The notes: a model not told the origin generated them from the sequence alone. A stretch of 64,000 nt of DNA from Candidatus Uhrbacteria bacterium RIFCSPHIGHO2_02_FULL_46_47 (GCA_001790815.1 MGDU01000010.1:2621-66620); one strand, 5' to 3'. Counted from the first letter of the stretch, positions 10,001 through 63,830 are shown. Made by a program: numbers and translations.

Positions 10001-10649
10001 GGTGGTAAACGCGACAATTTCACTTGAAGCCCTTGATGAATCAGCGCTTACGGAAGATCAGCGCGCTTTGCTTGATGAAGCGCAGAAAAAAGATTTGCTT
10101 GCCCAGATGCAGAGCGAACAAGAAGAGGCGCTTTTTACAAGTGGGGTGCGCTACTTGGTAACGCGCAAGAGTACCAAAGGATTTACGATTCTTTTGAGCG
10201 CGGCCGCTCCATCAGATGTGCGATTTAGCTGGATCGCGCTGGCAGTGAAGAACGCACGAACGCACACGAAAGTTGAAGATACACTAACGGACACGAACAC
10301 AAGTAGCGCGGCACTTGATGTGCCGCTGGAGGCACCCTCACCCCCGCAGTCATCCGACGCGGCTACGAACCCTCTCCCTGCGGGAGAGGGAGTAGTTTCT
10401 CCTCCGGATGATGCGGCGGTTCTTGAACCTGCCACAGAGCCCACGCCGGAAGGGCTAAGTCCTGTCGCAGGGCTTAGCCCTGAAACCAGCAACGCCCCAG
10501 AACCTGCACCTGAGCCAGTCGGGTCATCCGACCCGACTGCCCCGTCGGATGACGGGGCAGAACCCGCACCGGAAACCGCACCAGAGGCCACGCCAACCTC
10601 TGATATTTCATCCACAGATAGCATAGTTGCCACAGAGGAAACGCCATGA
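1026..10649 (+). CDS. giant (3207 aa) secreted/surface repeat protein, fibre/adhesin-like
   Basis: N-terminal signal/TM ([14 protein letters not shown]). Thr/Gly/Ala/Asn-rich beta-repeat modules are reiterated ([44 protein letters not shown] x3-4; [36 protein letters not shown] x3+). A C-terminal globular segment ([23 protein letters not shown]...WYNP) is followed by a coiled coil and a Pro/Ala/Glu-rich tail. The strand is uninterrupted for 9.6 kb. Confidence 0.85.
2791..8130 (+). repeat. intragenic long tandem/mosaic repeats (about 2.1-kb period) within the giant gene
   Basis: 2791-4886 vs 4887-6980 align with roughly 80-85% DNA identity, by eye. A third partial copy with extra [23 protein letters not shown] sub-repeats lies at about 7190-8130. 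Confidence 0.75.
9723..9760. repeat. palindromic insertion element, family D (TCACTGAGTGAT..ATCACTCAGTGA), in-frame in the giant gene
   Basis: 14-bp perfect inverted repeat with 11-nt spacer; encodes [14 protein letters not shown] near-identical copy sits at 13290-13328. Confidence 0.75.
10335..10391. repeat. GC-rich palindromic insertion element, family C, in-frame in the giant-gene tail
   Basis: CCCTCACCCCC...CCCTCTCCCTGCGGGAGAGGGAG; encodes [20 protein letters not shown]. Confidence 0.6.
10452..10483. repeat. palindromic insertion element, family B (GGGCTTAGCCC pair), in-frame in the giant-gene tail
   Basis: agggctaagtcct..cagggcttagccctg; encodes [10 protein letters not shown]. Confidence 0.7.
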
Positions 10650-10687
10650 TATCATCATAATGATATTTACTCGCCATCATAAAATAT

Positions 10688-10969
10688 ATGAGTAATACGA
10701 TTGAAGTTACCACAAATGACATAATGGAGTTTTTGAAGGATAACATGGTGACGAAGGAGGATTTACGGGATGAAATTAAGAAGGTAAAAGATGAGATTCT
10801 TTCGCAACTGGCGGTAATGCAAAAAGAACTGGAAGACATTAAAGCGCGCCTTGATGATATTGAAGAAAGATTGAAAGATGACACGGATGCGCTCGCGCGC
10901 GATGTATTGCAATTGAGAGAGCGTGTGGTTGTGCTTGAAAAACAGCTTGGCATTCAAGTATTAATGTAA
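10688..10969 (+). CDS. small coiled-coil protein, hypothetical
   Basis: 93-aa ORF with heptad-like charged repeats (KEDLRDEIKKVKDEILSQLAVMQKELEDIKARLDDIEERLKD). Confidence 0.4.
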   Translation: MSNTIEVTTNDIMEFLKDNMVTKEDLRDEIKKVKDEILSQLAVMQKELEDIKARLDDIEERLKDDTDALARDVLQLRERVVVLEKQLGIQVLM

Positions 10970-11085
10970 TAATTTAAAAATAAGTATACAACTATGGGAA
11001 ATGCAAAACGACTCGCTACTCCTGAACCAACAACCGAGCCAGTTGCCACCGAAACCCAGCCGTGATATTATGACAGTTACTAAAT

Positions 11086-11133
11086 GTAGTCGCAGGTCTT
11101 TAGCCTGCGCGCAACCTAAAGAGTTGCGGCTAC
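11086..11133. repeat. REP/BIME-like element, family E (GTAG..hairpin(TCTTTAG loop)..hairpin(CTAAAGA loop)..CTAC)
   Basis: gtagtcGCAGGtctttagCCTGCgcGCAACctaaagaGTTGCggctac: two stem-loops with the conserved loop and different stems. Confidence 0.7.
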
Positions 11134-11552: not shown

Positions 11553-11607
11553 GTAGCCGCAACTCTTTAGGTTGCGCAATTGACGCCGGCTAAAGACCGG
11601 CGACTAC
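11553..11607. repeat. REP/BIME-like element, family E (inverted relative to the 11086 copy)
   Basis: gtagccGCAACtctttagGTTGCgcaattgacGCCGGctaaagaCCGGCgactac. Confidence 0.7.
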
Positions 11608-11620
11608 TAGATAACACGAA

Positions 11621-11666
11621 CCCTCACCCTCAATCCCTCTCCCCGAGGGAGAGGAAAGGTGAGGGG
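11621..11666. repeat. GC-rich palindromic element, family C (intergenic copy)
   Basis: ccctcaccctcaatccctctccccgagggagaggaaaggtgagggg: nested inverted repeats. Confidence 0.7.
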
Positions 11667-15333: not shown

Positions 15334-15367
15334 GAATGTAAAATTAAAAATGTAAAATGAAAAATGA
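15334..15367 (+). promoter_or_regulatory. family G element (tandem TGTAAAAT boxes) at the murF start
   Basis: ggaaTGTAAAATtaaaaaTGTAAAATgaaaaatg; supplies the MKNE.. start. Confidence 0.45.
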
Positions 15368-16763
15368 GTGTATGAAGGAAGTAGTAATATCTATCCTCCA
15401 GGTATTTGCCAAGCTCATTTTGCAAAAATATAAACCCACTATTGTCGCTATAACCGGTTCGGTTGGAAAAACGTCAACCAAAGAGGCAATTTACGCGGTT
15501 CTTGCTTCAAAATTTTCCGTACGCGCGACGCCCAGAAATTATAATAATGAATTGGGCGTACCGCTGACTATAATTGGAGCAGGACTTAGCCCTGAGCGTG
15601 AAAGGGCTAAGTCCTTGTTTCTTGGAAAGTCACCTTTTCGCTGGTGTAGAGTATTTTGCAGAGCATTGTGGCAAATTATCATGCCTGCGCGCTATCCGGC
15701 AATATTAGTGCTGGAGATGGGAGCAGATCGGCCAAAAGACATACAAAAACTCGTAAAACTTGCTCCGCCAAAAATTGGGGTGGTAACTGCTATTGCGCCA
15801 GTGCATACTGAATTTTTTGGCGATGTGGAAAAAGTGGCGCGTGAAAAAAGGCGTCTTGTTGAAGCAGTGCCAAAGCAGGGGACAGTGGTATTAAATATAG
15901 ATGATGAAATGGTGCGTGAGTTTGCAAAGCATGCAAAAAGTACGGTTGTTGGTTATGGAATTGAGAGCAATGAGGCAGAAGTAAGGGCAGTTGAGGTGCA
16001 TGATGATATTGAAATAGGGGGAAGCCGAACCTCCGATGCTTCGGAGGTTCGGCTTCCAGACATTGAATTAGGCAGTATTCATTTCAAAATTATAACTGAC
16101 GGCTCTGCCGTGCCCGTGCATTTGCCTAGTGTGTTGGGCCACGCCCACGTGTACGCGGCGCTTGCCGCTTGCGCAGTGGGACGCGCGTTTGGAATGCACA
16201 TGGTTGAAATTTCCCGTGCGCTGTTAAATTATGCTCCGCCTCCCGGCCGCATGCGAATTATTGCTGGCATTAAAAATACGGTGATCATTGACGATACTTA
16301 CAATGCTTCTCCGCGGGCAACTGTAGCCGCCCTTGAAACACTTGGAGGGCTAAGCCCTTTTTCAAAATCAGGGCTTAGCCCTGTGCGTTACGCCGTGCTT
16401 GGCGATATGCTGGAGTTAGGGCCTTATACAGAATCCGGCCATCGCGAAGTGGGCCGCGTTGCGGCGCAAAATGCCGATGTAGTTATTGGCGTGGGTGTCA
16501 GTGCGCAATGGCTTGTTGATGAGGCAAATAAAACCCGTCTAAATTTACCCTCTGCTGAAGGAAATTTTGTCGGGCATTTGCATACCCATGACGAAGCCGA
16601 ACATTTTTTGCAGGAGCGAATACGGCCGGGCGATGTGATACTGATCAAAGGATCTCAAAGCATGCGCATGGAGAAGCTCGTCAAAGGTCTAATGGCTGAA
16701 CCTTTGCGCGCGGATGAATTATTATGCCGACAAGAAAAAGAATGGTTGACACGACAACACTAA
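15357..16763 (+). CDS. murF: Mur ligase family protein, MurF-like (UDP-MurNAc-pentapeptide synthetase)
   Basis: P-loop ITGSVGKTSTKE and MurF-type NNELGVPLT motif. The usual N-terminal domain is missing, and it carries two in-frame family B palindromes (GLSPERERAKSL; GGLSPFSKSGLSP). Confidence 0.65.
   Translation: MKNECMKEVVISILQVFAKLILQKYKPTIVAITGSVGKTSTKEAIYAVLASKFSVRATPRNYNNELGVPLTIIGAGLSPERERAKSLFLGKSPFRWCRVFCRALWQIIMPARYPAILVLEMGADRPKDIQKLVKLAPPKIGVVTAIAPVHTEFFGDVEKVAREKRRLVEAVPKQGTVVLNIDDEMVREFAKHAKSTVVGYGIESNEAEVRAVEVHDDIEIGGSRTSDASEVRLPDIELGSIHFKIITDGSAVPVHLPSVLGHAHVYAALAACAVGRAFGMHMVEISRALLNYAPPPGRMRIIAGIKNTVIIDDTYNASPRATVAALETLGGLSPFSKSGLSPVRYAVLGDMLELGPYTESGHREVGRVAAQNADVVIGVGVSAQWLVDEANKTRLNLPSAEGNFVGHLHTHDEAEHFLQERIRPGDVILIKGSQSMRMEKLVKGLMAEPLRADELLCRQEKEWLTRQH
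15581..15615. repeat. family B palindrome in-frame in murF
   Basis: aggacttagccct-gagcgtgaa-agggctaagtcct (12-bp perfect inverted repeat). Confidence 0.75.
16347..16383. repeat. family B palindrome pair in-frame in murF
   Basis: gggctaagccc..agggcttagccctg. Confidence 0.75.
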
Positions 16764-19055: not shown

Positions 19056-19607
19056 ATGTTAGGGGGAATACAGCAGTTAGTCTCAAGCATCAATTGGTCT
19101 CGGCCAAGCTGGGATTTATTCATTTTTTTGTTTTTCTTTATTATCGCGTTTTTGTACGGTTTTTCTTTGGGACGCGACCGTATTTTAGTGATTTTAGTTT
19201 CCATCTATATTGCCCTGGCGGTAGTTCCCGCCTTTCCTTATCTTGATCGTCTACATCTTGATGTGTCAGTGCAGGGTTTTGCATTCCGCGTAACCTCGTT
19301 TTACATTGTATTCGTAGTTTTGTTTTTCCTGTTATCTCGCTCCGCGCTTGTGAATCTCTTGGGCGCGCAAAACACAGGAGTGGGAGATCGTTTAATTGAG
19401 GTTATTATTTTTAGTATTTTGCACGTTGGACTTTTAGTTTCTGTTACGCTCTCTTTTTTACCTCAAAATGCCCTGATGCAGCTTTCTACCGGCACGCGCG
19501 AAGTATTTACCTCTGATATGGGCAAGTTTTTGTGGCTTGTCGCGCCGGTAATCGCAATGATTATATCTTCACACCATCGATGGCGAAGAGGAGGATTCCA
19601 GGGCTAA
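19056..19607 (+). CDS. integral membrane protein (4-5 TM), possibly CvpA-like
   Basis: Multiple hydrophobic helices; the stop codon lies inside a family B palindrome. Confidence 0.45.
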   Translation: MLGGIQQLVSSINWSRPSWDLFIFLFFFIIAFLYGFSLGRDRILVILVSIYIALAVVPAFPYLDRLHLDVSVQGFAFRVTSFYIVFVVLFFLLSRSALVNLLGAQNTGVGDRLIEVIIFSILHVGLLVSVTLSFLPQNALMQLSTGTREVFTSDMGKFLWLVAPVIAMIISSHHRWRRGGFQG

Positions 19608-19636
19608 GCCCTGTGGCATCTTAGGGCTTAGCCCCG
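19599..19636. repeat. family B palindrome pair (intergenic, overlapping the stop of the 19056 gene)
   Basis: cagggctaagccctg-tggcatct-tagggcttagccccg. Confidence 0.75.
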
Positions 19637-27725: not shown

Positions 27726-29381
27726 ATGTTCAAGCTTTATAATTCCTATACCAAGCGCAAGGAGGGGTTTCGGCCCGCCCATCAAGTGGGCGAGGCTCGC
27801 CTCCGGCGGCCGCTAAAGGATAAGCAGGTGGGGATGTATAATTGCGGGCCCACGGTCTATGACTATGTGCATATTGGAAATTTGCGCGCGTTTTTGTTTG
27901 CCGATATTTTGCGGCGGTATTTGGAATATCGTAGATACAAAGTGAAACAGGTGATGAATATTACTGATGTGGGGCATATGGTTGCCGATGGTGAAAATGG
28001 TGAGGATAAAATGTCCGTGGCAATGCGTCGAGAGGGTAAAGGGCCGGCGGAAGTCGCGCGTTTTTACGAAAAAGCATTTTTTCAAGACATCAATACGCTC
28101 GGTATCAAGCCAGCCTGGAAATATCCGCGTGCCACTGAGCATATTCCGGAGATGATCGCGCTAATTAAAAAATTACTCAAACGCGGGCATGCGTATTTGG
28201 TGGCGGAATCTGCACCACCCCTAACCCCTCCTCCACAAGGAGGGGAAACGAATCAATTTCCTCCCCTGCCCGAGGGGAGGTTAGGAGGGGTGGGAGCTTC
28301 TGTTTATTACGACTTATCTACTTTTCCAAACTACGGCAAACTTTCCGGAAACAAAGTAGATGATCTCATTCCCGGAGCACGAGTGGATGTTATTCATGAA
28401 AAACGCAATCCGTATGATTTCGCGCTGTGGATTTATAAACCGGAGCATGTTTTAAAATGGAGTGCGCCATGGGGCGCGGGATATCCGGGCTGGCATTTAG
28501 AGTGTTCTGCAATGTCCATGAAATATCTTGGGCAAACGCTTGATATCCACACAGGCGGCGAAGATAATAAGTTCCCGCATCATGAGTGCGAGATCGCGCA
28601 GTCAGAGGGCGCAACCGGCAAGCCATTTGCGCGCTATTGGTTGCATGTCAAACATTTACTGGTTGATGGCAAAAAAATGTCAAAATCGCTGGGAAATTTT
28701 TATACTCTGAAAGATTTACTGCAAAAAGGATATTCAGCGCGCGCGATTCGTTATGCGCTTATTTCAACGCACTATCGGGAAACTCTGAATTTTACTTTGG
28801 AAAGCGTGAAGGCGGCGGAGAATGCGTTGCAAAGGGTGGATGAGGTGGTGGATAGGTTGCATCCCCCCTCACCCCAACCCTCTCCCGCACGGGGAGAGGG
28901 AGTAAAGCGCATTCCCTCGCCCTTCATGGGAGAGGGGCAGGGTGAGGGTTTTGCGCGATTGGTCGCACGCACCCGCAAGGATTTTATTGCCGCCATGGAT
29001 GATGATTTAAATGTTTCAAAGGCGCTGGCAGTGATGTTTGAATTGGTGAAAAAAATCAATAAAGTAATGGATAGACCCTCACCGGTCCTTCGGACACCCT
29101 CTCCCGAAGGGGTCGAAGACGGGCCGAGCGAGCGCAGGCCCCGGGGAGGGGTGGGTGAGGGGTTGAAATTGCTGATGGAATTTGATGAGGTGCTGGGATT
29201 GGGGATTGGAAAAAGTGAAAAGCGCACTGTGCCAGAAGAAATTATGAAATTAGTGCAAGAGCGTGAAAAAGCGCGCAATAAAAAAGATTTTGGCCGTGCT
29301 GATGCGTTGCGTAAAGAAATTGCAGAACATGGCTATATTTTGGAAGACACAGCGCAAGGTCCGAGGGTGAAATTAAAATAG
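27726..29381 (+). CDS. cysS: cysteine--tRNA ligase (CysRS) with three in-frame palindromic insertions
   Basis: N-terminal [16 protein letters not shown] (class I HIGH), KMSKS present (KKMSKSLGN). At 551 aa vs about 460 typical, the excess comes from three family C elements encoding P/G/E-rich loops. Confidence 0.9.
28214..28295. repeat. family C palindromic element in-frame in cysS (1 of 3)
   Basis: caccaccctaacccctcctccacaaggagggg...cctcccctgcccgaggggaggttaggaggggtggga; encodes [28 protein letters not shown]. Confidence 0.8.
28863..28948. repeat. family C palindromic element in-frame in cysS (2 of 3)
   Basis: cccccctcaccccaaccctctcccgcacggggagaggg...gggagaggggcagggtgaggg; encodes [22 protein letters not shown]. 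Confidence 0.8.
29077..29162. repeat. family C palindromic element in-frame in cysS (3 of 3)
   Basis: ccctcaccggtccttcggacaccctctcccgaagggg...ccccggggaggggtgggtgagggg. Confidence 0.8.
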
Positions 29382-31175: not shown

Positions 31176-31652
31176 ATGGCACAAGAAGAAAAACCAAAAA
31201 TAGTCCCAACTGAACAACCGCCGGAAATAGAAAAAATTCCTGAAGCGCCAAAAGAGGCGCCTGTCCTTGAGGTTCCAATGGAACGTCCGCCTGCGGAAAA
31301 AGAATTGCCGGCAAAAGCGCCGCCGCCAATTGCGCCGGCAGTGTTGCCGCCGGCAGTACCAGCAGATCCAGTGCTTAAGCAAATTGAAACAATCCTTGCG
31401 GAGGATTTGGAAGAGGTTTATGCGCAACTTCCGCCAGAGCTTAAGCCAAAGTTTAAGGTCAAGGGCGAGGAAGTCGCGAGCGCAATTCGCACTATGATGG
31501 CAACTGCCAAGATTAAAGCGCGCAAAGTATTAAAGCTCATTGCGCAGTGGCTCAAAATTATTCCGGGTGTGAACAAATTTTTTCTGGAACAAGAAGCCGC
31601 GATCAAAGCGCAGAAAATTATGGCTGTCGCGCAGGAGGAGAAGGAAGTATGA
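31176..31652 (+). CDS. Pro/Ala/Glu/Lys-rich protein, hypothetical
   Basis: 158 aa; a low-complexity PEAPKE/PPAV N-terminal half, then a helical C-terminal half. Confidence 0.5.
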   Translation: MAQEEKPKIVPTEQPPEIEKIPEAPKEAPVLEVPMERPPAEKELPAKAPPPIAPAVLPPAVPADPVLKQIETILAEDLEEVYAQLPPELKPKFKVKGEEVASAIRTMMATAKIKARKVLKLIAQWLKIIPGVNKFFLEQEAAIKAQKIMAVAQEEKEV

Positions 31653-31732
31653 TGCCAATATACGAATTTCATGCCAATCTACAAATTGCAAATTCGTATT
31701 TGTAGATTTGAATAAGATTTGTAGATTTGCAT
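31652..31732. repeat. family F intergenic element (ATGCCAATCTACGAATTTCATGCCAATCTACAAAT...ATTTGTAGATTTGAATAAGATTTGTAGATTTGCAT)
   Basis: Contains four TTTGTAGATT/AATCTACAAA half-sites in inverted arrangement. Begins at the stop of the upstream gene and ends 8 nt before the next ATG; copies at 40973 and 48320. Confidence 0.75.
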
Positions 31733-31739
31733 TACATTT

Positions 31740-39900: not shown

Positions 39901-39927
39901 ATGTTATACTAAATGGGGAATCATATG

Positions 39928-39960
39928 AATGTAAAATGTAAAATGAAAAATGTAAAATTA
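39928..39960 (+). promoter_or_regulatory. family G element (three TGTAAAAT boxes) at the start of the 39943 gene
   Basis: gaaTGTAAAATGTAAAATgaaaaaTGTAAAATta. Confidence 0.45.
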
Positions 39961-40971: not shown

Positions 40972-40972
40972 A

Positions 40973-41053
40973 ATGCCAATCTACGAATTTCATGCAAATC
41001 TACAAATCGCGAATTTGTATTTGTAGATTTGAATAAGATTTGTAAATTTGCAT
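40973..41053. repeat. family F intergenic element, copy 2 (immediately upstream of murJ)
   Basis: atgccaatctacgaatttcatgcaaatctacaaatcgcgaatttgtatttgtagatttgaataagatttgtaaatttgcat. Confidence 0.75.
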
Positions 41054-41057
41054 TGTC

Positions 41058-42710
41058 GTGGTTCAATGGTTCAATTCTAAAATAGAAAGCATTGCAGGTG
41101 CCGCGGTAATTTTGGCCGGGGCATCTTTCGCATCTAAAATTTTAGGGCTGCTGCGCAATCGCGTGCTTGCTGGCGCGTTTGGCGCTTCAGATACGCTGGA
41201 TGCTTATTATGCCGCCTTCCGCATTCCGGACGCAATTTTTCAGTTTGTGGTCTTAGGCGCGCTCTCGGCCGGGTTTATTCCGGTATTTATGGAGTTGATG
41301 GCGCACACCCCCTCACCTCAATCCTCTCCCTCAGGGAGAGGGCAGGGTGAGGGCAATTCTCAGTGGCAAGTGGCTTCAACCGTGCTAAACGCGCTCGTCA
41401 TAATTCTTGCCGTTTTTGCCACGGTCTTTGCAATTTTCGCTCCACAGCTTCAAATGCTTATTGCCCCCGGATTTAATGGCGAAAAACTCGCGCTGACCAT
41501 ACAATTCGCGCGCATCATGGCGCTTAGCCCTATTTTTTTGGGAATCTCCGCGGTATTTTCCGGAATTTTGCAATCCTATCGCCGTTTTGTAATTTACGCG
41601 CTGGCCCCGCTTTTTTATAATGTAGGCATAATTTTCGGCGCGCTTTGGCTTGTGCCGATTTTTGGAGTTTTGGGATTGGCACTTGGCGTTGTAATAGGCG
41701 CGCTAATGCACATGGCCGTGCAAATTCCAAATGTGCGCCGTGTTGGATTTCGCTGGCGGCCTATTTTAGATTTAAAAAGCCAAGCCGTACGCAAAATCGG
41801 AGTGCTTTCCATGCCGCGCTTGCTTGGTTTGGCTGTAACTCAAGTCAATTTATTCGCGATTACACTTTTAGCTTCAAAATTGTCTTCCGGAAGTTTGTCA
41901 ATATTTAATCTGGCAAATGACATTCAAAGCGTACCCATAGGACTTTTTGCGATTTCCCTTGCCACCGCCGCGTTTCCGGCCTTTTCCGAATTTGCCACGC
42001 GTAAAGATAACGATGGATTTAGAAAAAGTTTTTCTTCTACGGCGCGCCTCATTTTGTTTTTAACCATTCCATTTGCCATCCTGCTTTTGCTTTTGCGGGC
42101 CCAAGTTGTACGCGTGCTTTTGGGGTCCGGAAAATTTGATTGGGCAGATACTATAGCTACCGCGGACACGCTTGCATTTTTTAGCTTAAGTTTGTTTGCC
42201 CAGGCGCTATTGCCCCTTTTGGCACGCGCATCCTACGCATTGAAGGATACATTGTCGCCGCTTCTGGCCGGTGCCGCAGGAGTCGCGGCCAATGTCATAC
42301 TCGCTTTGTATTTTCGCGGACCTTTTGGGATTGCCGGGTTGGCGCTTGCGTTTTCATTCGCGATGCTTATAAATTTAGGGATACTTTGGCTTATGCTTCG
42401 TGCGCGTCTGCGCTCGCTTGACGAGGCGCAAATTGTTCCCGCGCTTTTTAAAATCTCCGGAGCGGCGCTGGCCATGGCACTTGTCGTGCAGGCCACAAAG
42501 TATTGGCTTGCCCCGCAAGTGAATATGCAAACCGGGGTAGGAGTTTTAACGCAAGGATTTGTCTCGGGCACCCTCGGTCTTACTGTATTTTTAATTACCG
42601 CGCTGGCCATGGGCTCAGACGAAGCCCGCGCCATTAAGAATGCTTTTACCAAGCGCCTTTTCCGCGGGAAAGATGTCCGGCCAGTGGAAATCGTGGAGCC
42701 CCGCGGATGA
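41058..42710 (+). CDS. murJ: lipid II flippase MurJ (MviN)
   Basis: GTG start; N-terminal ASKILGLLRNRVLAGAFGASDTLDAYYAAFRIPD is the MurJ signature and the protein has about 14 TM segments. A family C element is inserted in-frame (HTPSPQSSPSGRGQGEGNSQ). Confidence 0.85.
   Translation: MVQWFNSKIESIAGAAVILAGASFASKILGLLRNRVLAGAFGASDTLDAYYAAFRIPDAIFQFVVLGALSAGFIPVFMELMAHTPSPQSSPSGRGQGEGNSQWQVASTVLNALVIILAVFATVFAIFAPQLQMLIAPGFNGEKLALTIQFARIMALSPIFLGISAVFSGILQSYRRFVIYALAPLFYNVGIIFGALWLVPIFGVLGLALGVVIGALMHMAVQIPNVRRVGFRWRPILDLKSQAVRKIGVLSMPRLLGLAVTQVNLFAITLLASKLSSGSLSIFNLANDIQSVPIGLFAISLATAAFPAFSEFATRKDNDGFRKSFSSTARLILFLTIPFAILLLLLRAQVVRVLLGSGKFDWADTIATADTLAFFSLSLFAQALLPLLARASYALKDTLSPLLAGAAGVAANVILALYFRGPFGIAGLALAFSFAMLINLGILWLMLRARLRSLDEAQIVPALFKISGAALAMALVVQATKYWLAPQVNMQTGVGVLTQGFVSGTLGLTVFLITALAMGSDEARAIKNAFTKRLFRGKDVRPVEIVEPRG
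41308..41352. repeat. family C palindromic element in-frame in murJ
   Basis: cccctcacctcaatcctctccctcagggagagggcagggtgaggg. Confidence 0.8.
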
Positions 42711-44366: not shown

Positions 44367-46337
44367 ATGGAACAATCGAAAATTCGGAATTTTTGCATTA
44401 TCGCCCATATTGATCATGGAAAGTCCACGCTCGCGGATCGGTTTTTGGAATTGACCGGAACAGTAGAAAAGCGGCAGATGAAAGAACAGCTTTTGGATCA
44501 GATGGATATTGAACGCGAGCGCGGCATCACTATCAAACTCGCTCCAGTCCGCATGAACTACGTACTACATACTACCCCCTACGTACTTAACCTAATTGAC
44601 ACCCCCGGCCACGTTGACTTCACTTACGAAGTTTCGCGTTCACTGGCGGCAGTGGAAGGCGCGATTTTACTGGTTGATGCAACTCAAGGCGTGCAAGCCC
44701 AAACTATTGGTAATCTTTATCTTGCGCTAGAGCAAAATCTCACAATTATTCCAGTGGTAAATAAAATTGATTTGCCCAGTGCCGATGTTGCTAAGACAAA
44801 GGCAGAACTCATGCATTTAATCGGATGCAAAGAAGAGGAGATTTTGGCAGTTTCCGGACGAACTGGTGAAGGTGTGCCGGAATTGTTGGAGGCGATTGTG
44901 GAACGCGTGCCAGCCCCTCACCCCAACCCTCTCCCACAAGGGGAGAGGGAGTTACAGAAATACCCCACTCCCTTAATGGGAGGGGATAAAGGGGGGGGTG
45001 TTTCGCTTCGGGCCTTAATCTTTGACTCCATTTATGACACGTATCGCGGAGTGGTGGCGTATGTGCGGGTATTTGACGGTGAAATAAAAAAGGGCGAGAA
45101 AATCATTTTCATGGCCACCAAGGCGCAAAGCGAAGCGCTGGAAGTTGGATTTTTCAAACCAAAATTTGTTCCCTCCGATTCACTTGGAGCCGGTGAGATC
45201 GGTTATATTGTGACTGGGCTTAAAGATATTGCCGGATGCCGCGTTGGAGATACTATTACGGGCTACACGCTACACGCTACAAGCTACACGGTTGAACCCC
45301 TTCCCGGCTATAAAGAAGTAAAACCCATGGTGTTTGCCGGAATTTTTCCAAAAGTAGGGGATGAGTATTCGCAACTGCGCGAGGCCATGGGAAAACTCAA
45401 ACTCAATGACGGCGCGCTTAGCTATGAGCCGGAAAAATCCACTGCGCTGGGATTTGGATTCCGCTGCGGATTTTTAGGACTTTTACATTTGGAAATTGTA
45501 GAAGAGCGTTTGCGTCGCGAGCATAACGTTGAAGTAATTACAACAGTTCCATCTGTGGCGTATCGGGTTAGCAAAACTGATGGTCAAGTGATGATAATCA
45601 AAGGCGCGCAGGAATTGCCTGATCAAAATTATATTCAAAAAATTGAAGAGCCGTGGGTCAAAATTGATGTGGTGGTGCCAAAAAAATACATTGGCGGAGT
45701 GATGCAGTTGGTACAAGAGAAAAGGGGAGTGTATGTGAATACGGAGTACATGCTACCCTCACCCCAACCCTCTCCCATAAGGGGCGAGGGAGAAAATCAG
45801 GTTCCCTCTCCCTCCATGGGAGAGGGAGATTCGGCCATGGACGAATCGGGTGAGGGGCGCGTAATTTTGCATTACGAACTCCCGCTTGCCTCAATTCTTG
45901 TGGATTTTTATGATAAACTCAAAAGCGTTTCTTCTGGTTATGCCTCGCTCAATTATGAATTGACCAAATACAAGGAAGCAGATGTGGTGCGACTTGATAT
46001 TTTAGTGGCTGAAGATCAGGTTGAGGCGCTGGCCACGGTTGTTTATAGCGATAGCGCGCAAGACTCGGGTCGTAAAATTGTGGAGGCGCTTAAAAAAACT
46101 TTGCCGCGCCAGCAATTTGAAATTAAAATCCAGGCCGCGCTGGGCGGAAAAATTATTGCTTCCGAACGCATTTCACCTTTGCGCAAAGATGTGACGGCCA
46201 AGCTTTATGGCGGCGATGTGACGCGCAAAATGAAACTTTTGGAAAAACAGAAAAAAGGCAAGAAAAAAATGGCGGCCATGGGCCACGGGGCAGTGGATAT
46301 TCCACCAGCGGCCTACCTTGCGGTACTGAAACGTTGA
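44367..46337 (+). CDS. lepA: elongation factor 4 (LepA) with two in-frame palindromic insertions
   Basis: MEQSKIRNFCIIAHIDHGKSTLADR (G1), DTPGHVDF (G3), NKID (G4). Family C insertions encode PAPHPNPLPQGERELQKYPTPLMGGDKGGGVS and LPSPQPSPIRGEGENQVPSPSMGEGD... Start taken at the homologous Met (ORF track 44355). Confidence 0.9.
   Translation: MEQSKIRNFCIIAHIDHGKSTLADRFLELTGTVEKRQMKEQLLDQMDIERERGITIKLAPVRMNYVLHTTPYVLNLIDTPGHVDFTYEVSRSLAAVEGAILLVDATQGVQAQTIGNLYLALEQNLTIIPVVNKIDLPSADVAKTKAELMHLIGCKEEEILAVSGRTGEGVPELLEAIVERVPAPHPNPLPQGERELQKYPTPLMGGDKGGGVSLRALIFDSIYDTYRGVVAYVRVFDGEIKKGEKIIFMATKAQSEALEVGFFKPKFVPSDSLGAGEIGYIVTGLKDIAGCRVGDTITGYTLHATSYTVEPLPGYKEVKPMVFAGIFPKVGDEYSQLREAMGKLKLNDGALSYEPEKSTALGFGFRCGFLGLLHLEIVEERLRREHNVEVITTVPSVAYRVSKTDGQVMIIKGAQELPDQNYIQKIEEPWVKIDVVVPKKYIGGVMQLVQEKRGVYVNTEYMLPSPQPSPIRGEGENQVPSPSMGEGDSAMDESGEGRVILHYELPLASILVDFYDKLKSVSSGYASLNYELTKYKEADVVRLDILVAEDQVEALATVVYSDSAQDSGRKIVEALKKTLPRQQFEIKIQAALGGKIIASERISPLRKDVTAKLYGGDVTRKMKLLEKQKKGKKKMAAMGHGAVDIPPAAYLAVLKR
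44914..45000. repeat. family C palindromic element in-frame in lepA (1 of 2)
   Basis: cccctcaccccaaccctctcccacaaggggagagggag...gggaggggataaaggggggggtg. Confidence 0.8.
45756..45857. repeat. family C palindromic element in-frame in lepA (2 of 2)
   Basis: ccctcaccccaaccctctcccataaggggcgagggag...ctccatgggagagggag...gggtgagggg. Confidence 0.8.
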
Positions 46338-46488: not shown

Positions 46489-48315
46489 ATGGAAAAGAAT
46501 TGGGTACTTTTGGAAAACGCGCCGGAGGATTGGCAAGGTCAAATGCCAGAGGTGTCTGCTATTTTGCGGCAGATTTTGTGGACTCGTGGATTGCGAACTA
46601 AGGCCGAGGCAGAACAATTTTTACATCCTAGTTTTGAAAAGGATCTGCATGATCCTTTTTTGTTTAAGGACATGGAAAAAACAGTGGCGCGGCTGTTTGC
46701 GGCAATTGAGAAAAAGGAGAAAATTTTTGTGTATGGCGATTATGACGCGGATGGCGTACCGGGCGCGGCTATTTTGAAAACTACCCTGGACGCGCTTGGC
46801 GCGGTTACGGATATTTATATTCCGCATCGCGAAAAAGAAGGATATGGACTAAATAGCGGCGCCATTGCCTATATGGCCGAGCAAAATGGCAAGATAGTGA
46901 TTACTTGCGACTGTGGGATTAGCAATGCGTCAGAAGTGGCTGAGGCGCGCGCAAAAGGAATTGATGTAATCATCACTGACCATCATCGCATACCTGAAAT
47001 AGTACCCAAACCATTTGCAATTTTGCATCCATTAATTCCCGGAGAAAAATATCCGAACAAGTTTTTAACCGGCGGTGGCGTGGCGTATAAGCTGGCGTGC
47101 GCGCTTTTACAAACCGCGCATAACTCCCCCCAACCCCCTCTTACCTTAAGAGGGGGAGAGGATCTTGAAGGATTTGAAAAGTGGTTGTTGGATTTGGTGG
47201 CCATATCAACTGTGGCGGATGTGGGGAAACTTCTGGATGAGAATCGAACGCTTGTAAAATATGGACTTACCGTACTTAACAAAACCCGCCGGCTAGGTTT
47301 GCAAAAACTTATTGAAGCCGCAGGAATAAAGCTGGGTGCGCTAGACACTTATTCAATCGGCTGGCAAATCGCTCCGCGTATCAATGCCGCCGGCCGCATG
47401 GATCATGCCAATGCCGCTTTTCAATTGCTGATGGCCACTGACGCGGAAGAAGCGCAGCGTCTTGCGGCACAGTTGAACGAATCAAATGTGGCGAGACAAA
47501 AGGAAACCGATCGCGCGTTAAAGGAGGCGAGGGAACAAATTATGAAGGGATTACTCTCACCTCAATCCTCTCCCATAAAGGGAGAGGAAGTAACGCAACC
47601 CCCCTCGCACCTTGCGGGAGAGGGTCGGGGTGAGGGGGAATTACCGTACCTCCTTGCCGCGTATAATCCTTCCTGGAATCCCGGAGTGATTGGGTTGGTA
47701 GCTGGACGGCTTATGGAAGAATTTCGGCGGCCGGTACTTATCTGCACGCGCAATGAAGGCGGAAAATTTATGGCCTCGGCACGATCAATTTCAGAATTTA
47801 ATATTATTGAAGCGCTCGCCTCATCAAAAGAATATCTTTTGAAATTTGGCGGGCACCCCAAAGCCGCTGGTTTTTCTGTTGAAAGCGAAGAGAAATGGCA
47901 TGCACTTATTGCGCATTTGCAGGAACTCGCGCACAAAGCGCTCCATGCTGTTGATGTGCGGCCAACGCTCTATATTGACGCGGATCTTATACTTGCGCAA
48001 GTAGATTGGAATTTAGTTTCTGATGTGCAAGCGCTTGAGCCGTGCGGGGAAGGCAATCCGCGTCCGCGGTTTTTAATACATGGCATAACCGTGCTTGGAT
48101 TTGATACTGTAGGAAATGGCGGGAAGCACTTGCGTCTTACGGTTACTGATGAAACGCAAAAGCCGCGCAAAATGATTGGATTTAATTGTGGAAGCTGGTG
48201 CGAGCGGTTAAAAATCGGCGACTTGATTGATGTGGTCGTTGAAGTTGGAGTAAATGAATGGAATGGAAATCGTGATATTGAGATGCGAATTGTGGATTTA
48301 AGATTCCATCAATAA
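46489..48315 (+). CDS. recJ: single-stranded-DNA-specific exonuclease RecJ (DHH family) with two in-frame palindromic insertions
   Basis: VYGDYDADGVPGAAIL, ITDHH (DHH motif), DHHA1 region GGHPKAAG; insertions AHNSPQPPLTLRGGEDLEG and LSPQSSPIKGEEVTQPPSHLAGEGRGEGE. Confidence 0.85.
   Translation: MEKNWVLLENAPEDWQGQMPEVSAILRQILWTRGLRTKAEAEQFLHPSFEKDLHDPFLFKDMEKTVARLFAAIEKKEKIFVYGDYDADGVPGAAILKTTLDALGAVTDIYIPHREKEGYGLNSGAIAYMAEQNGKIVITCDCGISNASEVAEARAKGIDVIITDHHRIPEIVPKPFAILHPLIPGEKYPNKFLTGGGVAYKLACALLQTAHNSPQPPLTLRGGEDLEGFEKWLLDLVAISTVADVGKLLDENRTLVKYGLTVLNKTRRLGLQKLIEAAGIKLGALDTYSIGWQIAPRINAAGRMDHANAAFQLLMATDAEEAQRLAAQLNESNVARQKETDRALKEAREQIMKGLLSPQSSPIKGEEVTQPPSHLAGEGRGEGELPYLLAAYNPSWNPGVIGLVAGRLMEEFRRPVLICTRNEGGKFMASARSISEFNIIEALASSKEYLLKFGGHPKAAGFSVESEEKWHALIAHLQELAHKALHAVDVRPTLYIDADLILAQVDWNLVSDVQALEPCGEGNPRPRFLIHGITVLGFDTVGNGGKHLRLTVTDETQKPRKMIGFNCGSWCERLKIGDLIDVVVEVGVNEWNGNRDIEMRIVDLRFHQ
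47125..47161. repeat. family C-like palindromic element in-frame in recJ (1 of 2)
   Basis: ctccccccaaccccctcttaccttaagagggggagagg. Confidence 0.7.
47556..47638. repeat. family C palindromic element in-frame in recJ (2 of 2)
   Basis: ctcacctcaatcctctcccataaagggagagg...cttgcgggagagggtcggggtgaggggg. Confidence 0.8.
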
Positions 48316-48319
48316 TATG

Positions 48320-48408
48320 ATGCCAATATACGAATTTCATGCCAATCTACAAATAACAAATAATTCATTCGCAATTCGTAGATTAGCATAAGATTTGTAG
48401 ATTTGCAT
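48320..48408. repeat. family F intergenic element, copy 3 (immediately upstream of rnhA)
   Basis: atgccaatatacgaatttcatgccaatctacaaataacaaataattcattcgcaattcgtagattagcataagatttgtagatttgcat. Confidence 0.75.
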
Positions 48409-48416
48409 CATATTTT

Positions 48417-55364: not shown

Positions 55365-55438
55365 GAATGTAAAATGTAGAATGTAAAATGAAAAATGAAA
55401 ACGTAATTTTGCATTTTAAATTTTAAATTTTACATTTA
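55365..55438. promoter_or_regulatory. family G element (TGTAAAAT boxes in both orientations) between pilB and the receiver gene
   Basis: agaaTGTAAAATgtagaaTGTAAAATgaaaaatgaaaacgtaattttgcattttaaATTTTACAtt; contains a decayed MKNENV mini-ORF. Confidence 0.45.
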
Positions 55439-57641: not shown

Positions 57642-57738
57642 GTAGCCGCCGGTCTTTAGCCGGCGCACTTGCTCAAAGTAGATTGTAGCCGCCGGTCTTT
57701 AGCCGGCGCACTCGCGCAGCTTAAAGCGCTGCGGCTAT
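57642..57738. repeat. family E REP-like cluster: two identical GTAGCCGCCGGTCTTTAGCCGGCGCAC units plus a third hairpin
   Basis: 57642-57668 and 57685-57711 are identical; 57714-57738 is GCGCAGCttaaagcGCTGCGgctat. Confidence 0.75.
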
Positions 57739-57760
57739 AATAATTAAAATATAATAAACT

Positions 57761-59806: not shown

Positions 59807-60382
59807 ATGCTGAAACGTGGTTTTGGGCTACTGGAAACTATTATTGCGCTGGGAGTAATTATAACTGGGCTTGTTTCAGTTATTTCGCTTAGTATTGCAA
59901 ATCTAACAAATGAGCGCGACACGGCGATGCGCTACCAAGCAGTTAATCTTGCGCGCGAAGGAATTGAGCTTGTGCGCAATATTCGCGATAGCAACTGGCT
60001 TGCTGGTACGGATACCTGGCAAGGAATTCCGCCAGGAGGAGGGGATTTTACTATACAATTCAATCCAGAAACTCAAAAGTTTGCGTTTGCGCCTGCAGGC
60101 GGTGAAGAGTCTGTTGAAGGCGCGCGCGTTGCACAGTGCGGAGATGGAATCTATATCCAACCGAGCAGTTTTATTTGCGATAAAATTACCCCATTTTCAA
60201 GAACGCTGAATCTTACGTTCAAAAGCTGTGTAGGAGAATTTTCAGGCGATGAATTCGCCTCTGTATGCGAAGCGGCTGGGAATCCCACTCCCCCGGTTGC
60301 CCTTGAGATTTCGTCCACTGTTAGTTGGAATCAAGGAGCAAAAAATATCACGATTACTGATATCCTATATGACTGGCGATAA
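59807..60382 (+). CDS. minor pilin-like protein
   Basis: KRG|FGLLETIIALGVIITGLVSVISL prepilin-like N-terminus. Confidence 0.65.
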   Translation: MLKRGFGLLETIIALGVIITGLVSVISLSIANLTNERDTAMRYQAVNLAREGIELVRNIRDSNWLAGTDTWQGIPPGGGDFTIQFNPETQKFAFAPAGGEESVEGARVAQCGDGIYIQPSSFICDKITPFSRTLNLTFKSCVGEFSGDEFASVCEAAGNPTPPVALEISSTVSWNQGAKNITITDILYDWR

Positions 60383-60950
60383 AAACGGCTTTACACTGAT
60401 GGAGATGCTGGTTTCACTTGCGCTTTTTTCAGTGGTTGTTACGATTTCAACAGATCTTTTCTTTACCTTCCAGCGCGTTTCTCGCAAAACAGAGAGCTTT
60501 GAGCATTTAGTTTCAGATGCGAGATTGATTATTGAGCAAATTGCGCGCGAAGTGCGGGAAGGTACGATCCATTACAGTGCATATCCAACTCTGCCGTTGA
60601 ATACGCCGCAAACCACGCTTAAGATATTAGATAGTTCCGCAGTTCCGGTTGAATTTGCCTTTAACGCATCTTGTCCGGATAATAGCGAGTTCCCATGTCT
60701 TACGATTGCGCGTGGCGGTTCTCCGGAGCGGCTTTCCGGCGTGGATACGCGAGTTATCAACGCGCAATTCTTCATTTCCCCAACACTAGATCCATTTAAC
60801 TTTTCAGCAGATACCGGAAATTATTTAGCCGATAGCCAACCGCGCGTAACAGTCGCGCTATCGCTTGATAATGGCAAAGACGCCGGCGATCCAAATTATA
60901 TTCGTTATGATGTTCAAACCACAATATCAAGCCGCGTTTATCGGCGGTAA
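60369..60950 (+). CDS. minor pilin-like protein
   Basis: KNG|FTLMEMLVSLALFSVVVTIS; start at the ATG overlapping the upstream stop (ORF track 60249). Confidence 0.65.
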   Translation: MTGDKNGFTLMEMLVSLALFSVVVTISTDLFFTFQRVSRKTESFEHLVSDARLIIEQIAREVREGTIHYSAYPTLPLNTPQTTLKILDSSAVPVEFAFNASCPDNSEFPCLTIARGGSPERLSGVDTRVINAQFFISPTLDPFNFSADTGNYLADSQPRVTVALSLDNGKDAGDPNYIRYDVQTTISSRVYRR

Positions 60951-61743
60951 CCCTACCCAACCTCCCTCACCCGGCCTGCGGCCACCCTCTCCCTCAGGGA
61001 GAGGGGAGGGTGAGGGGAAAAAAGGAGAGAGGAGGGGTTACTCCTTGCTTTTGGCCGTGCTGATTACCAGCACTGTTCTTTCAGCCGCTTCTGCGCTAGC
61101 CACTATTATTATTTCGGAAATTCGGCAAACGCGGCAAACTGCCGGCGCAATCCAAGCTCGCGCAAGCGCAGAACAAAAAACCGAGCGCGTTTTGTATTTA
61201 TTGCGCAAGACAGAATTGCCACTTGATCAGATTGCCGGCGCAACCGGTGCGGCCGTTTCATCTTCGCAAGATCCACAATATTTTAGCATTCAGGAAAATG
61301 ATTTTGTGTCATTGCCCATTAGCGTAGACGGGGAAGTATCCGATATTGCGCCGCGCATTACTACCATTACTACATGGAAGCCGGCAGAGGCATGCGCAAG
61401 CGCAAGCGCAAGCTGGATTGAGGTAACACCGATTTCATGGAACGGTGCGGAATTTATTTCACAACGATACCCGTATTCTCACAGCGACTTTACATCCGAA
61501 GGTCAGTTGCGTATTGCATTTCCGGCTGGTGGAACGCCGGTTGAAATGCGCATCCGCGCTTTGTATTGCGACATTGATAATCTTGCCGTAGAAGATATTC
61601 CCGGACGCGTGCGCATCGTGGCTTCTGGGCAATCCGGAGACGTGAGCCAGTCCTTGCAGACGCTTATGGTTCGCCGTCCTCCAGCGTCAGGATTATTTGA
61701 TTTTGTCATTTTTTCAGAATCCGAAATCAAAAAAGGACTATGA
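60865..61743 (+). CDS. pilus-associated membrane-anchored protein (PilX/GspK-like position); start ambiguous
   Basis: Hydrophobic anchor GYSLLLAVLITSTVLSAASALATIIISE. The ORF N-terminus runs through a family C element (60951-61017); an alternative TTG start at 61045 has a GGAGAGGAGGGG RBS. Confidence 0.5.
   Translation: MIMAKTPAIQIIFVMMFKPQYQAAFIGGNPTQPPSPGLRPPSPSGRGEGEGKKGERRGYSLLLAVLITSTVLSAASALATIIISEIRQTRQTAGAIQARASAEQKTERVLYLLRKTELPLDQIAGATGAAVSSSQDPQYFSIQENDFVSLPISVDGEVSDIAPRITTITTWKPAEACASASASWIEVTPISWNGAEFISQRYPYSHSDFTSEGQLRIAFPAGGTPVEMRIRALYCDIDNLAVEDIPGRVRIVASGQSGDVSQSLQTLMVRRPPASGLFDFVIFSESEIKKGL
60951..61017. repeat. family C palindromic element at the junction of minor pilin genes
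   Basis: ccctacccaacctccctcacccggcctgcggccaccctctccctcagggagaggggagggtgagggg. Confidence 0.8.
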
Positions 61744-63830
61744 TTAAAGATGAAGCAAAAAAGCGAATTGAGAAATTGCGCGAGGGAATTAATCGCTATC
61801 GATATCAGTATCATGTACTGGATAAGCTTGAAATTTCCGAAGCCGCGCTGGACTCATTAAAGCACGAGCTTTTTAAGCTGGAACAAGAGTATCCGGAATT
61901 TATCACGTCGGATTCGCCAACTCAGCGGGTTGGCGGAAAGCCTCTGCCGGAATTTAAAAAAGTGACGCATAAGGTGCCCATGCTTTCCATGGAAGATGTG
62001 TTTTCGCCGCAGGAACTTACGGCATGGCTCACAAGAATTGAGCGGCACTATCCTAATGGCCATTTTGATTTTTACGCGGAAGTTAAAATGGACGGATTGG
62101 CTGTATCGCTTATTTATAAAAATGGCATACTGCATACCGGATCTACGCGTGGAGATGGAAAAGTGGGGGAGGATGTAACGCAGAATTTGAAAACAATTGA
62201 AGCCATCCCATTGCGCTTGCGTGTACCAAGCGAATCAGAAATCCGGAAGCTGAGCTTCCCAGGGGGAAGCTCAGCTTCCTTATATCTTACAATTACCAAT
62301 GCTATTGAACACGGCGAGATTGAAATTCGCGGTGAAGCGTACATGTCCAAGAAAACTTTTGAGGAGCTTAATTACGAGCAAAAGAAAAAGGGCGAAGAAT
62401 TATTTGCCAATCCGCGCAATGCCGCCGCCGGGGCAATTCGCCAGCTGGATCCTAAAATCAGTGCCTCGCGCCGACTTTCATTTTTTGGTTATGCGCTTTT
62501 GTTTCCTCCCCTGCCTGAGGGGAGGATTAAGGAGGGGTGGGAGACCCACGAGCAAGCGCACGAACTTATAAAATTATTCGGAATTCCGGTGAATTCGGAA
62601 AATAAGCACTGTAAAACTCTTGATGACGTAGTGCAATTTCATGAGCACGTTTATAAAAAGCGTGAAAAGCTCCCATATTGGACTGATGGTATTGTCGCGG
62701 TTATAAATAATGACGCGACGTTTGAGCGGCTTGGGGCGGTTGGTAAAGCGCCGCGCGGGATGATTGCGTATAAATTTCCGGCGCAACAGGCAACCACAAA
62801 AGTAAAAGAAGTGCGCTGGCAAGTCGGCCGTACTGGCGCGCTTACGCCCGTTGCGGTAATGGATCCGGTTTTTGTGGCCGGAACAACCGTTCAGCACGCT
62901 ACCCTGCATAATATGGATGAGATTGAGCGACTTGGTCTGAAAATAGGGGATACGGTAATTTTGGAAAAAGCCGGCGACATTATTCCAAAAATTGTGAAGG
63001 TTTTGTCAAAACTGCGCACTGGCCATGAAAAAATAATCCACACGCCAACGCATTGTCCGGCTTGCGGAAGTAAGGTCACGCGCGCGGAGGGCGAGGTTGC
63101 AATAGTTTGCAATAAAAAAAATTGTCCGGCAAAACATCTGGAAAATATCACGCATTTTGTTTCCAAAAAAGCCATGGATATTGACGGACTTGGCTATAAA
63201 ATAGTGGAACAGTTAATGAATGCGGGGTTTATTGCCACGCCGGCAGATATTTATAAACTGACCAAGTCAGATTTGATTGATTTAGAACGGTTTGGCGAAA
63301 AATCCGCGGAAAATCTGATTGCCGCCATTAATAAAGCACGCACGCCCCAGCTTTCACGTTTTATTTTTGCGCTGGGTATTAAACATGTGGGTGAGGAAAC
63401 TGCGGTGGATTTGGCCAACACTTTTGGCACGCTTAAAAAAATACGCGGAGCCGCGCTTGAAGAGCTTGAAGCCGTACCGAATATCGGTGAAGTAGTGGCG
63501 CGATCATTGCACGAGTATTTTTCGGACAAGCACAATCAAAAATTAATTGATGATTTGCTTGATGCAGGGGTTAGAGCTGAAGAAGTGCATATTAGGCGCC
63601 ATCAACCTTTTACGGGAAAAACATTCGTATTGACCGGCGGCCTGGAAACCATGACGCGCGATGAAGCCAAAGAAAAAATCCGCGCCTTAGGCGGCGATAT
63701 TTCCGGCTCGGTTTCCAAAAACACCGATTATGTCGTCGTCGGCACCGACCCCGGCGACAAATACGAAAAGGCCAAAAAACTCGGAATTAAAACACTAGAT
63801 GAGAAAACGTTTCGGGGCATGCTAAAATAA
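61740..63830 (+). CDS. ligA: NAD-dependent DNA ligase LigA with two in-frame palindromic insertions
   Basis: Adenylation motif KMDG (EVKMDGLAVSL), Zn finger CPACGS..C, HhH and C-terminal BRCT (FTGKTFVLTG). Insertions: family A REP doublet (KLSFPGGSSASLY) and family C ([15 protein letters not shown]). Confidence 0.9.
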   Translation: MIKDEAKKRIEKLREGINRYRYQYHVLDKLEISEAALDSLKHELFKLEQEYPEFITSDSPTQRVGGKPLPEFKKVTHKVPMLSMEDVFSPQELTAWLTRIERHYPNGHFDFYAEVKMDGLAVSLIYKNGILHTGSTRGDGKVGEDVTQNLKTIEAIPLRLRVPSESEIRKLSFPGGSSASLYLTITNAIEHGEIEIRGEAYMSKKTFEELNYEQKKKGEELFANPRNAAAGAIRQLDPKISASRRLSFFGYALLFPPLPEGRIKEGWETHEQAHELIKLFGIPVNSENKHCKTLDDVVQFHEHVYKKREKLPYWTDGIVAVINNDATFERLGAVGKAPRGMIAYKFPAQQATTKVKEVRWQVGRTGALTPVAVMDPVFVAGTTVQHATLHNMDEIERLGLKIGDTVILEKAGDIIPKIVKVLSKLRTGHEKIIHTPTHCPACGSKVTRAEGEVAIVCNKKNCPAKHLENITHFVSKKAMDIDGLGYKIVEQLMNAGFIATPADIYKLTKSDLIDLERFGEKSAENLIAAINKARTPQLSRFIFALGIKHVGEETAVDLANTFGTLKKIRGAALEELEAVPNIGEVVARSLHEYFSDKHNQKLIDDLLDAGVRAEEVHIRRHQPFTGKTFVLTGGLETMTRDEAKEKIRALGGDISGSVSKNTDYVVVGTDPGDKYEKAKKLGIKTLDEKTFRGMLK
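62243..62279. repeat. family A REP palindrome doublet inserted in-frame in ligA
   Basis: ccggaagctgagcttcc-caggg-ggaagctcagcttcc, identical in type to the RAYT-flanking elements. Confidence 0.85.
62505..62543. repeat. family C-like palindromic element in-frame in ligA
   Basis: cctcccctgcctgaggggaggattaaggaggggtgggag. Confidence 0.75.

Follow-up and report, generated by a model that had tools for sequence, protein, structure and literature searches.

The 64,000-nucleotide stretch analysed here (hereafter the window) comes from Candidatus Uhrbacteria bacterium RIFCSPHIGHO2_02_FULL_46_47 (GCA_001790815.1, MGDU01000010.1:2621-66620) and carries a set of GC-rich palindromic elements, termed Family C, most of which lie in frame within conserved genes. 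Judging by its sequence, the Family C unit is the already described BoxC/PIT/TMECO intrastrand triplex motif. We consider it probable, at about 0.72, that these elements multiplied in the Uhrbacteria lineage and were retained where they are harmless, mostly in surface loops and linkers that accommodate them in frame. All element counts, the search for a RAYT transposase, and the context scans refer to this one 64-kb window.

The word GGGAGAGGG occurs 16 times against 0.28 expected and GGGTGAGGG 13 times against 0.21 expected, and no shuffle reached either count. The 9-mer matches cluster into 12 GC-rich palindromic loci between positions 10335 and 62541, which bears out the claim of at least 12 such elements in the initial annotation of this DNA. 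Ten of the 12 loci lie in frame within conserved genes (cysS three times, lepA and recJ twice each, and murJ, ligA, and a giant open reading frame (ORF) once each; the five named hosts were assigned by NCBIfam), and the other two are an intergenic copy and a copy at a pilin-gene junction. The single consensus assumed in that annotation holds for nine loci only, since those at 28218, 62505, and 47125 belong to two other families. Family C therefore comprises three sequence families, of which the second (28218 and 62505, CCTCCCC-N7-GGGGAGG-TTA-GGAGGGG) and the third (47125 alone) retain the same three-arm architecture, with one C-rich arm, the complementary G-rich arm, and a further G-rich arm. 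The units occur singly, as an overlapping pair sharing one central hairpin (the short form of 44-53 nt in murJ and at 11621 and 60964), or as an inverted pair that makes a nested palindrome of 71-101 nt (the long form in cysS-2, lepA-1, lepA-2, and recJ-2, in which a plus-strand unit succeeds a minus-strand one). The 12 loci are as follows, with minimum free energy (MFE) in kcal/mol and folding z-score where given.

10335-10390, plus strand: giant-ORF copy, a partial TM-type element with the left outer arm CCCTCACCC and the central hairpin CCCTCTCCC/GGGAGAGGG
11621-11665, no strand assigned: intergenic short form, two overlapping triplex motifs with one common central hairpin (z -3.1)
28218-28294, plus strand: cysS insert 1 (residues ~159-191), a second-family inverted pair, CCCCTCC..GGAGGGG and CCTCCCC-N7-GGGGAGG-TTA-GGAGGGG
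28866-28948, plus strand: cysS insert 2 (residues 381-408), an inverted TMECO pair (MFE -59.8, z -7.4)
29076-29161, plus strand: cysS insert 3 (residues 451-479), a TM element with a GGCC-type side hairpin
41310-41353, plus strand: murJ insert (residues 85-99), a 44-nt short form (MFE -31.8, z -5.1)
44915-44985, plus strand: lepA insert 1 (residues 187-216), an exact minus-strand TMECO unit at 44915-44949 with a degenerate right half
45756-45856, plus strand: lepA insert 2 (residues 468-501), an inverted TM pair plus an additional side hairpin, GATTCGGCC..GACGAATC (MFE -64.5, z -5.9)
47125-47165, plus strand: recJ insert 1 (residues ~213-232), a single C-C-G three-arm unit of the third family, CCCCCC-AA-CCCCCTCTTA-CC-TTAAGAGGGGG (weak, z -1.7)
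47556-47636, plus strand: recJ insert 2 (residues 356-383), an inverted TM pair (MFE -43.9, z -4.7)
60964-61016, plus strand: pilin-junction copy, a TM element with a GGCC side hairpin (MFE -41.3, z -4.8)
62505-62541, plus strand: ligA copy, the plus-strand half only of the second family, closely matching cysS 28258-28294 with one 1-nt indel

By Watson-Crick folding, the TM-type copies have energies between -26 and -65 kcal/mol and z-scores between -3 and -7, and the variant copies of the second and third families fold less distinctively. Eleven of the 12 canonical G-quadruplex (G4) motifs of the window fall within Family C elements. The asymmetric copies are all in one orientation, on the presumed leading strand. 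At gathering thresholds, Rfam matched only tRNA in the window and has no family for Family C; a permissive scan returned only chance matches to eukaryotic miRNA hairpins, by which a known RNA family was ruled out. The element boundaries are imprecise, with no shared direct repeat at the Family C borders and no parent insertion sequence (IS) within the window.

Earlier descriptions of BoxC and PIT are said to go back to Bachellier et al. in the 1990s and to Hoyne and Maher in 2000. The motif was later described in Holder et al. 2015 (PMC4666352) and Kaplan et al. 2016 (PMC5100583), the latter also presenting it as the HPG1/HPG2 G-quadruplex-hairpin-duplex switch, and the concentration of G4 motifs in Family C agrees with that hairpin/G4 description. 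The published consensus is 5'-CCCTCNCCC N3-6 GGGNGAGGG N3 GGGNGAGGG-3' (PMC4666352). Four units in the window match it exactly, both units of cysS-2 (28866-28900 on the minus strand and 28914-28948 on the plus strand) and the minus-strand units at 44915-44949 and 45756-45790; a fifth, at 60985-61016, is near-exact with a second loop of 2 nt, and those at 41310, 47556, and 11621 depart from it by one or two mismatches. The E. coli K-12 copy in the hrpB-mrcB spacer (164540-164650) reads CCCTCACCC-TAA-CCCTCTCCC-TCAA-GGGAGAGGG, and the window unit, CCCTCACCC-CAA-CCCTCTCCC-N4-GGGAGAGGG, deviates from it in the loops only. Elsewhere, 262 proteobacterial genomes are reported to hold 3610 occurrences, cyanobacteria have abundant G/C-rich triplex motifs of a similar general kind, and the motif forms a triplex in vitro and has been linked to local genomic instability (PMC4666352, PMC5100583). 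Moreover, at least 120 viral-collection contigs of 44-73% GC match the hairpin plus the second G-rich arm, most of them without the left outer arm, and at least 120 unrelated metagenome contigs, mostly of high GC, match CCCTCACCYCAAYCCTCTCCC. This wide occurrence of a unit of ~34 nt, together with the near-identity to the E. coli copies, indicates that the unit is not a lineage-specific invention.

The window copies thus share with BoxC/PIT/TMECO the three-arm consensus, the inverted pairs (five in E. coli K-12; PMC4666352, PMC5100583), the G-rich arms that make a canonical G4 motif, a lineage-specific abundance, and the lack of any known associated enzyme. They differ primarily in location, because all 23 copies of E. 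coli K-12 are intergenic and none lies within an ORF (PMC4666352), whereas 10 of 12 here are in frame within conserved genes; the intergenic location, however, describes the E. coli copies and does not define the motif. The order of the pairs also differs, in that the outer arms close the structure in the window and the equivalent arms of the E. coli hrpB-mrcB copy face the middle of the pair, and the host is a bacterium of the candidate phyla radiation (CPR) with ~48% GC.

Several observations indicate that the repeated unit is DNA that was inserted into these genes, rather than a protein linker. One 21-mer gives PSPQPSP in cysS-2 and lepA-2 but HPNPLP in lepA-1, where the alternative frame gives HPNPLPQGERE, and the same DNA read in two frames means that what is repeated is not a peptide. 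The intergenic copy at 11621-11665, already recognised in the initial annotation and confirmed between the stop of the giant ORF (10649) and the next gene, leads to the same conclusion. Compared with orthologs, as the insertion claim demanded, lepA site 1 has 46 residues against an ortholog mode of 24, lepA site 2 has 52 against 20, and the recJ-2 site has 47 against 18-21 in most orthologs. The enlargement attributed to the two synthetase and elongation-factor hosts likewise holds, with CysRS at 551 residues against a baseline of ~477 and LepA at 660 against ~593. The proposed gain of 15-35 residues per copy does not extend to every locus: the ligA copy at 62505 adds a net ~5 residues relative to E. 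coli LigA, and the murJ site, at 35 residues against a mode of 21-22, lies in a loop between transmembrane helices 2 and 3 that is ~12 residues longer than in E. coli MurJ and already variable in length across orthologs.

Near relatives add a history to these sites. No TM 9-mer was found in 72 kb from four relatives with 69-74% LepA identity. The closest CysRS relative, P0122 (79% nucleotide identity), lacks the cysS-2 pair, has a TM short form at the cysS-1 site, where most orthologs have no insert, and shares cysS-3 with the window. Its form of cysS-3 is simple (52 nt), and the window copy has since gained a 33-nt insertion in the central loop (29112-29144) and an extra T:A pair in a side stem. 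In Falkowbacteria (L001 and L007), the same family occurs in lepA at another site and in another frame. The comparison thus shows gains, an orthologous copy that was kept, and an insertion nested within another element.

The two copies at the margins of this pattern are less clear. The copy at 10335-10390 (MFE -26.2, z -3.5) lies in frame near the C-terminus of the 3207-residue ORF and is a candidate insertion. That ORF (1026-10649) has no assigned function, and its last 100 residues hold several distinct palindromes (10335, 10451, and 10516). The pilin-junction copy named in the initial annotation is present, but its in-frame status is uncertain, since it begins 14 nt past the stop of the pilin gene (60249-60950); it may be intergenic, or it may lie in a long leader of a prepilin-like ORF (..KKGERRG followed by YSLLLAVLI). 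Its architecture matches that of three other contigs (L115, L138, and L189) and of the P0122 cysS copy.

Every in-gene copy leaves the host frame open, as originally stated, and the encoded peptides are rich in Pro, Ser, Gly, and Glu. The host genes are under strong purifying selection and functional, with dN/dS of 0.08 for cysS and at most 0.06 for lepA. In an AlphaFold2 model of CysRS built from a 106-sequence alignment (pLDDT 86, pTM 0.84), low-confidence coil covers residues 15-30, 162-189, 379-405, and 450-475, each between well-defined strands or helices; cysS-2 forms the coil between helices 358-378 and 406-425, and cysS-3 that between helices 430-449 and 476-490. All four CysRS insert regions are accordingly predicted to be disordered loops. 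A LepA model from a 16-sequence alignment was too poor (pLDDT 47) and was not used. In alignments to solved structures, the inserts fall between domains or secondary-structure elements: lepA-1 where the G domain meets domain II, lepA-2 between two conserved blocks, the recJ inserts between aligned blocks, and the ligA inserts in loops. The expectation of surface loops is supported by both approaches.

The composition of the unit favours such read-through. Most of the 139 units taken from other contigs have two of three frames open on the G-rich strand and all three on the C-rich strand, and the only stop built into the unit is the TGA in GGGTGAGGG. The second loop of the E. coli unit carries TAA, a stop codon when read in the PSP frame, whereas the coding strand of the window copies has CAA. 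The PSP frame is used by seven of nine copies, which is not significant given two open frames (binomial p ~0.09). In other contigs, ORF interiors are depleted of TM copies (0-0.40, with random positions at 0.37-0.69); in the window they hold 10 of the 12 copies, where random positions would give 0.56.

From these data, the following course of events may be proposed. The elements would have multiplied and been kept at a few intergenic sites and in permissive loops and domain linkers, a gene-dense genome offering few non-coding refuges. Because the arms are pyrimidine or purine runs, about five of six frames contain no stop, and read-through would add hydrophilic disordered loops, with C-rich arms encoding Pro and Ser and G-rich arms Gly, Glu, and Arg. 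The copies would then be translated, selfish or neutral passengers, and their in-frame placement would probably reflect survivorship and not targeting. With little non-coding DNA and survivorship, targeting is unnecessary to explain the pattern; the suggestion that the elements were selected to land in frame reads less well than survivorship of an element that is nearly stop-free. Candidates for the copying step are a hairpin-specific single-stranded DNA (ssDNA) transposase acting in trans, and break repair or gene conversion provoked by non-B DNA.

A number of points weigh against this reading. Its genomic scope, a single window, is small, and we infer the translation of the inserts from sequence. 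Neither a target-site duplication nor an associated enzyme was found for Family C. No within-population presence/absence polymorphism was found among six contigs compared as DNA, which are 99.9-100% identical to the window, and recent mobility is therefore unsupported. At several loops, relatives have other inserts at the same site, and some window copies may have replaced or entered older inserts instead of a pristine loop. Finally, synonymous conservation in cysS-3 would be unexpected of a purely neutral passenger unless gene conversion homogenises the copies. Between the window and P0122, synonymous divergence (pS) is 0.18 in this element against 0.57 in the gene core (binomial p ~0.001), and non-synonymous divergence (pN) is 0.19 in the element against 0.085 in the rest of the gene. 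The low pS, with pN close to it, indicates a constraint on DNA or RNA and not on the peptide, which in this single element could be either structural selection or gene conversion among copies.

The constraint in cysS-3 is among the arguments for the rival that survives best, although we still hold it to be unlikely, namely that the elements have a nucleic-acid function: as stable mRNA hairpins or DNA triplex/G4 structures at domain boundaries, they would pause ribosomes for co-translational folding, or modulate transcription, replication, or recombination. The strong folding of the TM-type copies, the position of lepA-1 at a domain junction, and the conservation of the motif across phyla are consistent with such a role. 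However, close relatives are either empty at these sites or hold an unrelated palindrome, so that no site needs the sequence; the E. coli work cited in PMC4666352 detected neither promoter nor terminator activity, nor a triplex stable in vivo; and gene conversion explains the synonymous conservation equally well.

It is more doubtful still that Family C elements are REPINs moved by a RAYT, a form of mobility that the initial annotation had raised. The window does contain one such gene:

194-904, plus strand: RAYT-type Y1 transposase gene (PF01797 at 43 bits, with the cut-off at 23)

The motifs YHIYNRG, NHFHLF, and RYIHLNP can be read directly in its product; the NCBIfam model REP_Tyr_transpos scored 46.8 bits, under its cut-off of 80, and a search of solved structures with the protein gave no match. 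The inverted doublets of Family C are REPIN-like, and the single orientation of the asymmetric copies on the presumed leading strand would be expected for ssDNA transposition. Part of this orientation bias, however, comes from coding, as a reversed murJ copy is open in only one of three frames. Cognate REPs normally flank their own RAYT, and the only RAYT of the window is flanked by hairpins of another family, GGAAGCTNAGCTTCC (174-188 and 909-947, the latter with hairpins at 909 and 933), not by Family C. In addition, BoxC/TMECO is not RAYT-associated in E. coli (PMC4666352). RAYT-driven mobility of Family C thus finds no backing in the neighbourhood of this gene, although a RAYT might conceivably act on it in trans.

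That the inserts are ancestral low-complexity Pro/Ser/Gly/Glu linkers, selected as protein and palindromic through codon composition alone, is highly improbable: the loops of relatives are also expanded at the same positions, but the two-frame reading yields unrelated peptides, one copy is intergenic, the units correspond to a repeat that is intergenic in E. coli, near relatives lack the copies, and pN approximates pS in the orthologous copy. Lastly, although the sequence comes from a metagenome-assembled genome, an assembly artefact or decay of the hosts into pseudogenes can hardly be credited at all, because the LepA sequence recurs unchanged on nine contigs, drawn from the NCBI, JGI, and ENA assemblies of different projects, and because all frames are intact with dN/dS of 0.06-0.08.

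Retention of multiplied BoxC/PIT/TMECO elements in permissive positions, the reading that we favour, can be compared with three known systems. Rickettsia palindromic elements (RPEs), reportedly described by Ogata et al. in 2000 and 2002, resemble Family C as palindromic repeats that lie in frame within unrelated housekeeping genes of a small-genome bacterium, are tolerated on protein surfaces, and also have non-coding copies. Family C elements are shorter (44-101 nt against ~100-150 bp), GC-rich, and of triplex/G4 architecture, and their unit is common to distant phyla, whereas RPEs are genus-specific. A relationship between the two has no support, the distinction being drawn by description and not by direct sequence alignment; the parallel suggested in the initial annotation therefore stands functionally, as in-frame and fold-compatible insertion, with no sequence relationship established. 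Its claim of an unusually high density is upheld, since Family C amounts to ~1 element per 6 kb within ORFs, far above the ~1 RPE per 30-70 kb in R. conorii (PMC10969869).

REP/REPIN sequences share with Family C the short hairpin repeats in inverted doublets. REPs are classically extragenic. A genuine RAYT-REPIN system coexists with Family C in the window, and both ligA and the RAYT gene hold in-frame doublets of it. Family C, in contrast, is absent from the RAYT flanks and is built from a three-armed unit instead of a simple hairpin. Bacterial MITEs, miniature transposable elements with inverted repeats, occur within genes, as exemplified by intragenic ERIC, QMITE1, and cyanobacterial MITEs (reviewed in PMC10969869), and they are likewise small non-autonomous repeats able to make in-frame fusions. 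Family C is much smaller, and neither terminal inverted repeats from a parent IS nor target-site duplications are evident in it.

Other palindromes are likewise found in frame in the window. The GGAAGCTNAGCTTCC family occurs as a hairpin doublet within the RAYT gene itself (356-396, units at 356 and 382, encoding GSSASVASTEAELP) and in ligA at 62237-62287, where this large insert, not of Family C, adds ~25 residues compared with E. coli LigA; a divergent form, GGAAGCCGAACCTCC, is found at 16020-16057 within a Mur ligase ORF (15357-16763). Doublets of AGGGCTWAGCCCT are present at 10451-10481, 15581-15615, 16346-16382, 19600-19635, and 37768-37802, the hosts being the giant ORF, the Mur ligase ORF (twice), dnaX, and one gene end. 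A 36-nt palindrome at 27771-27806 in the cysS N-terminus is absent from P0122 and is bordered on both sides by CGGCC, which may be a target-site duplication. Outside or at the edges of genes, AT-rich palindromes ATGCCAATCTACAAAT/ATTTGTAGATTTGCAT follow three genes (31645-31739, 40972-41054, and 48314-48414), and a related string is present in the lepA insert of a relative (L207). AT-rich palindromes of AATGTAAAATG-type heptamers lie at 39926-40013, at the start of ORF 39913-40971, and at 55366-55436, after the T2SSE gene, and a further intergenic family, GTAGCCGC..GGTCTTTAGCC.., is found at 11086-11133, 11585-11610, and 57681-57740. In Uhrbacteria relatives (lepA of L207-L210, and P0002-P0015), unrelated palindromic or AT-rich inserts occupy, in frame, the same four LepA loops (following residue ~72, RVPAP, VGDTIT, and NTEYL), an example being a perfect 18-bp palindrome in L209. 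In-frame palindromic repeats seem, from these comparisons, to be a general feature of the clade, each genome having its own families.

The host is a very small groundwater bacterium. Its placement rests on LepA, the best species-level matches of which are Patescibacteria at ~60% identity; its sequence cluster carries the name Candidatus Uhrbacteria bacterium RIFCSPLOWO2_12_FULL_47_10 (contig MGEO01000008.1, GCA_001791415.1). A cyanobacterial origin was ruled out, as the HIP1 octamer is not enriched and LepA points to Patescibacteria. The gene order murJ-lepA-recJ is kept in ~50 Patescibacteria. The window has a GC content of 47.6%; nearly all genes are on the plus strand, the GC skew is positive throughout, and the cumulative skew rises monotonically over positions 1-64000, which suggests that the whole window lies on the leading strand of one replichore.

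BoxC/PIT/TMECO has been known for ~30 years with no established function or copying mechanism, and it has been reported as strictly intergenic. A literature search on palindromic, in-frame, REPIN, and RAYT elements in CPR/Patescibacteria found no prior description, and no prior report of such elements within genes, although its coverage was incomplete. The motif class is known, and its in-frame intragenic lifestyle in CPR bacteria is new. The present data extend the range of the motif to Patescibacteria and show that it is tolerable inside genes, where it is presumably translated. The orthologous, gained, lost, and nested copies provide a natural system for studying spread and constraint. As a tentative and rather doubtful extension, TMECO-class units might be an ancient element copied across phyla, able through its almost stop-free make-up to colonise coding sequence, and actively maintained at the nucleotide level, which, together with REPINs and other palindromes, would be a main source of lineage-specific loop insertions in the essential proteins of gene-dense CPR genomes; if so, a nucleic-acid-level function or an unrecognised homogenising or copying machinery would be implied. 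The puzzling insertions found in conserved CPR proteins, which make them longer, may in many cases derive from repeats and not be adaptive domains; this matters for annotation, for structure prediction, and for the use of protein length and indels as phylogenetic characters.

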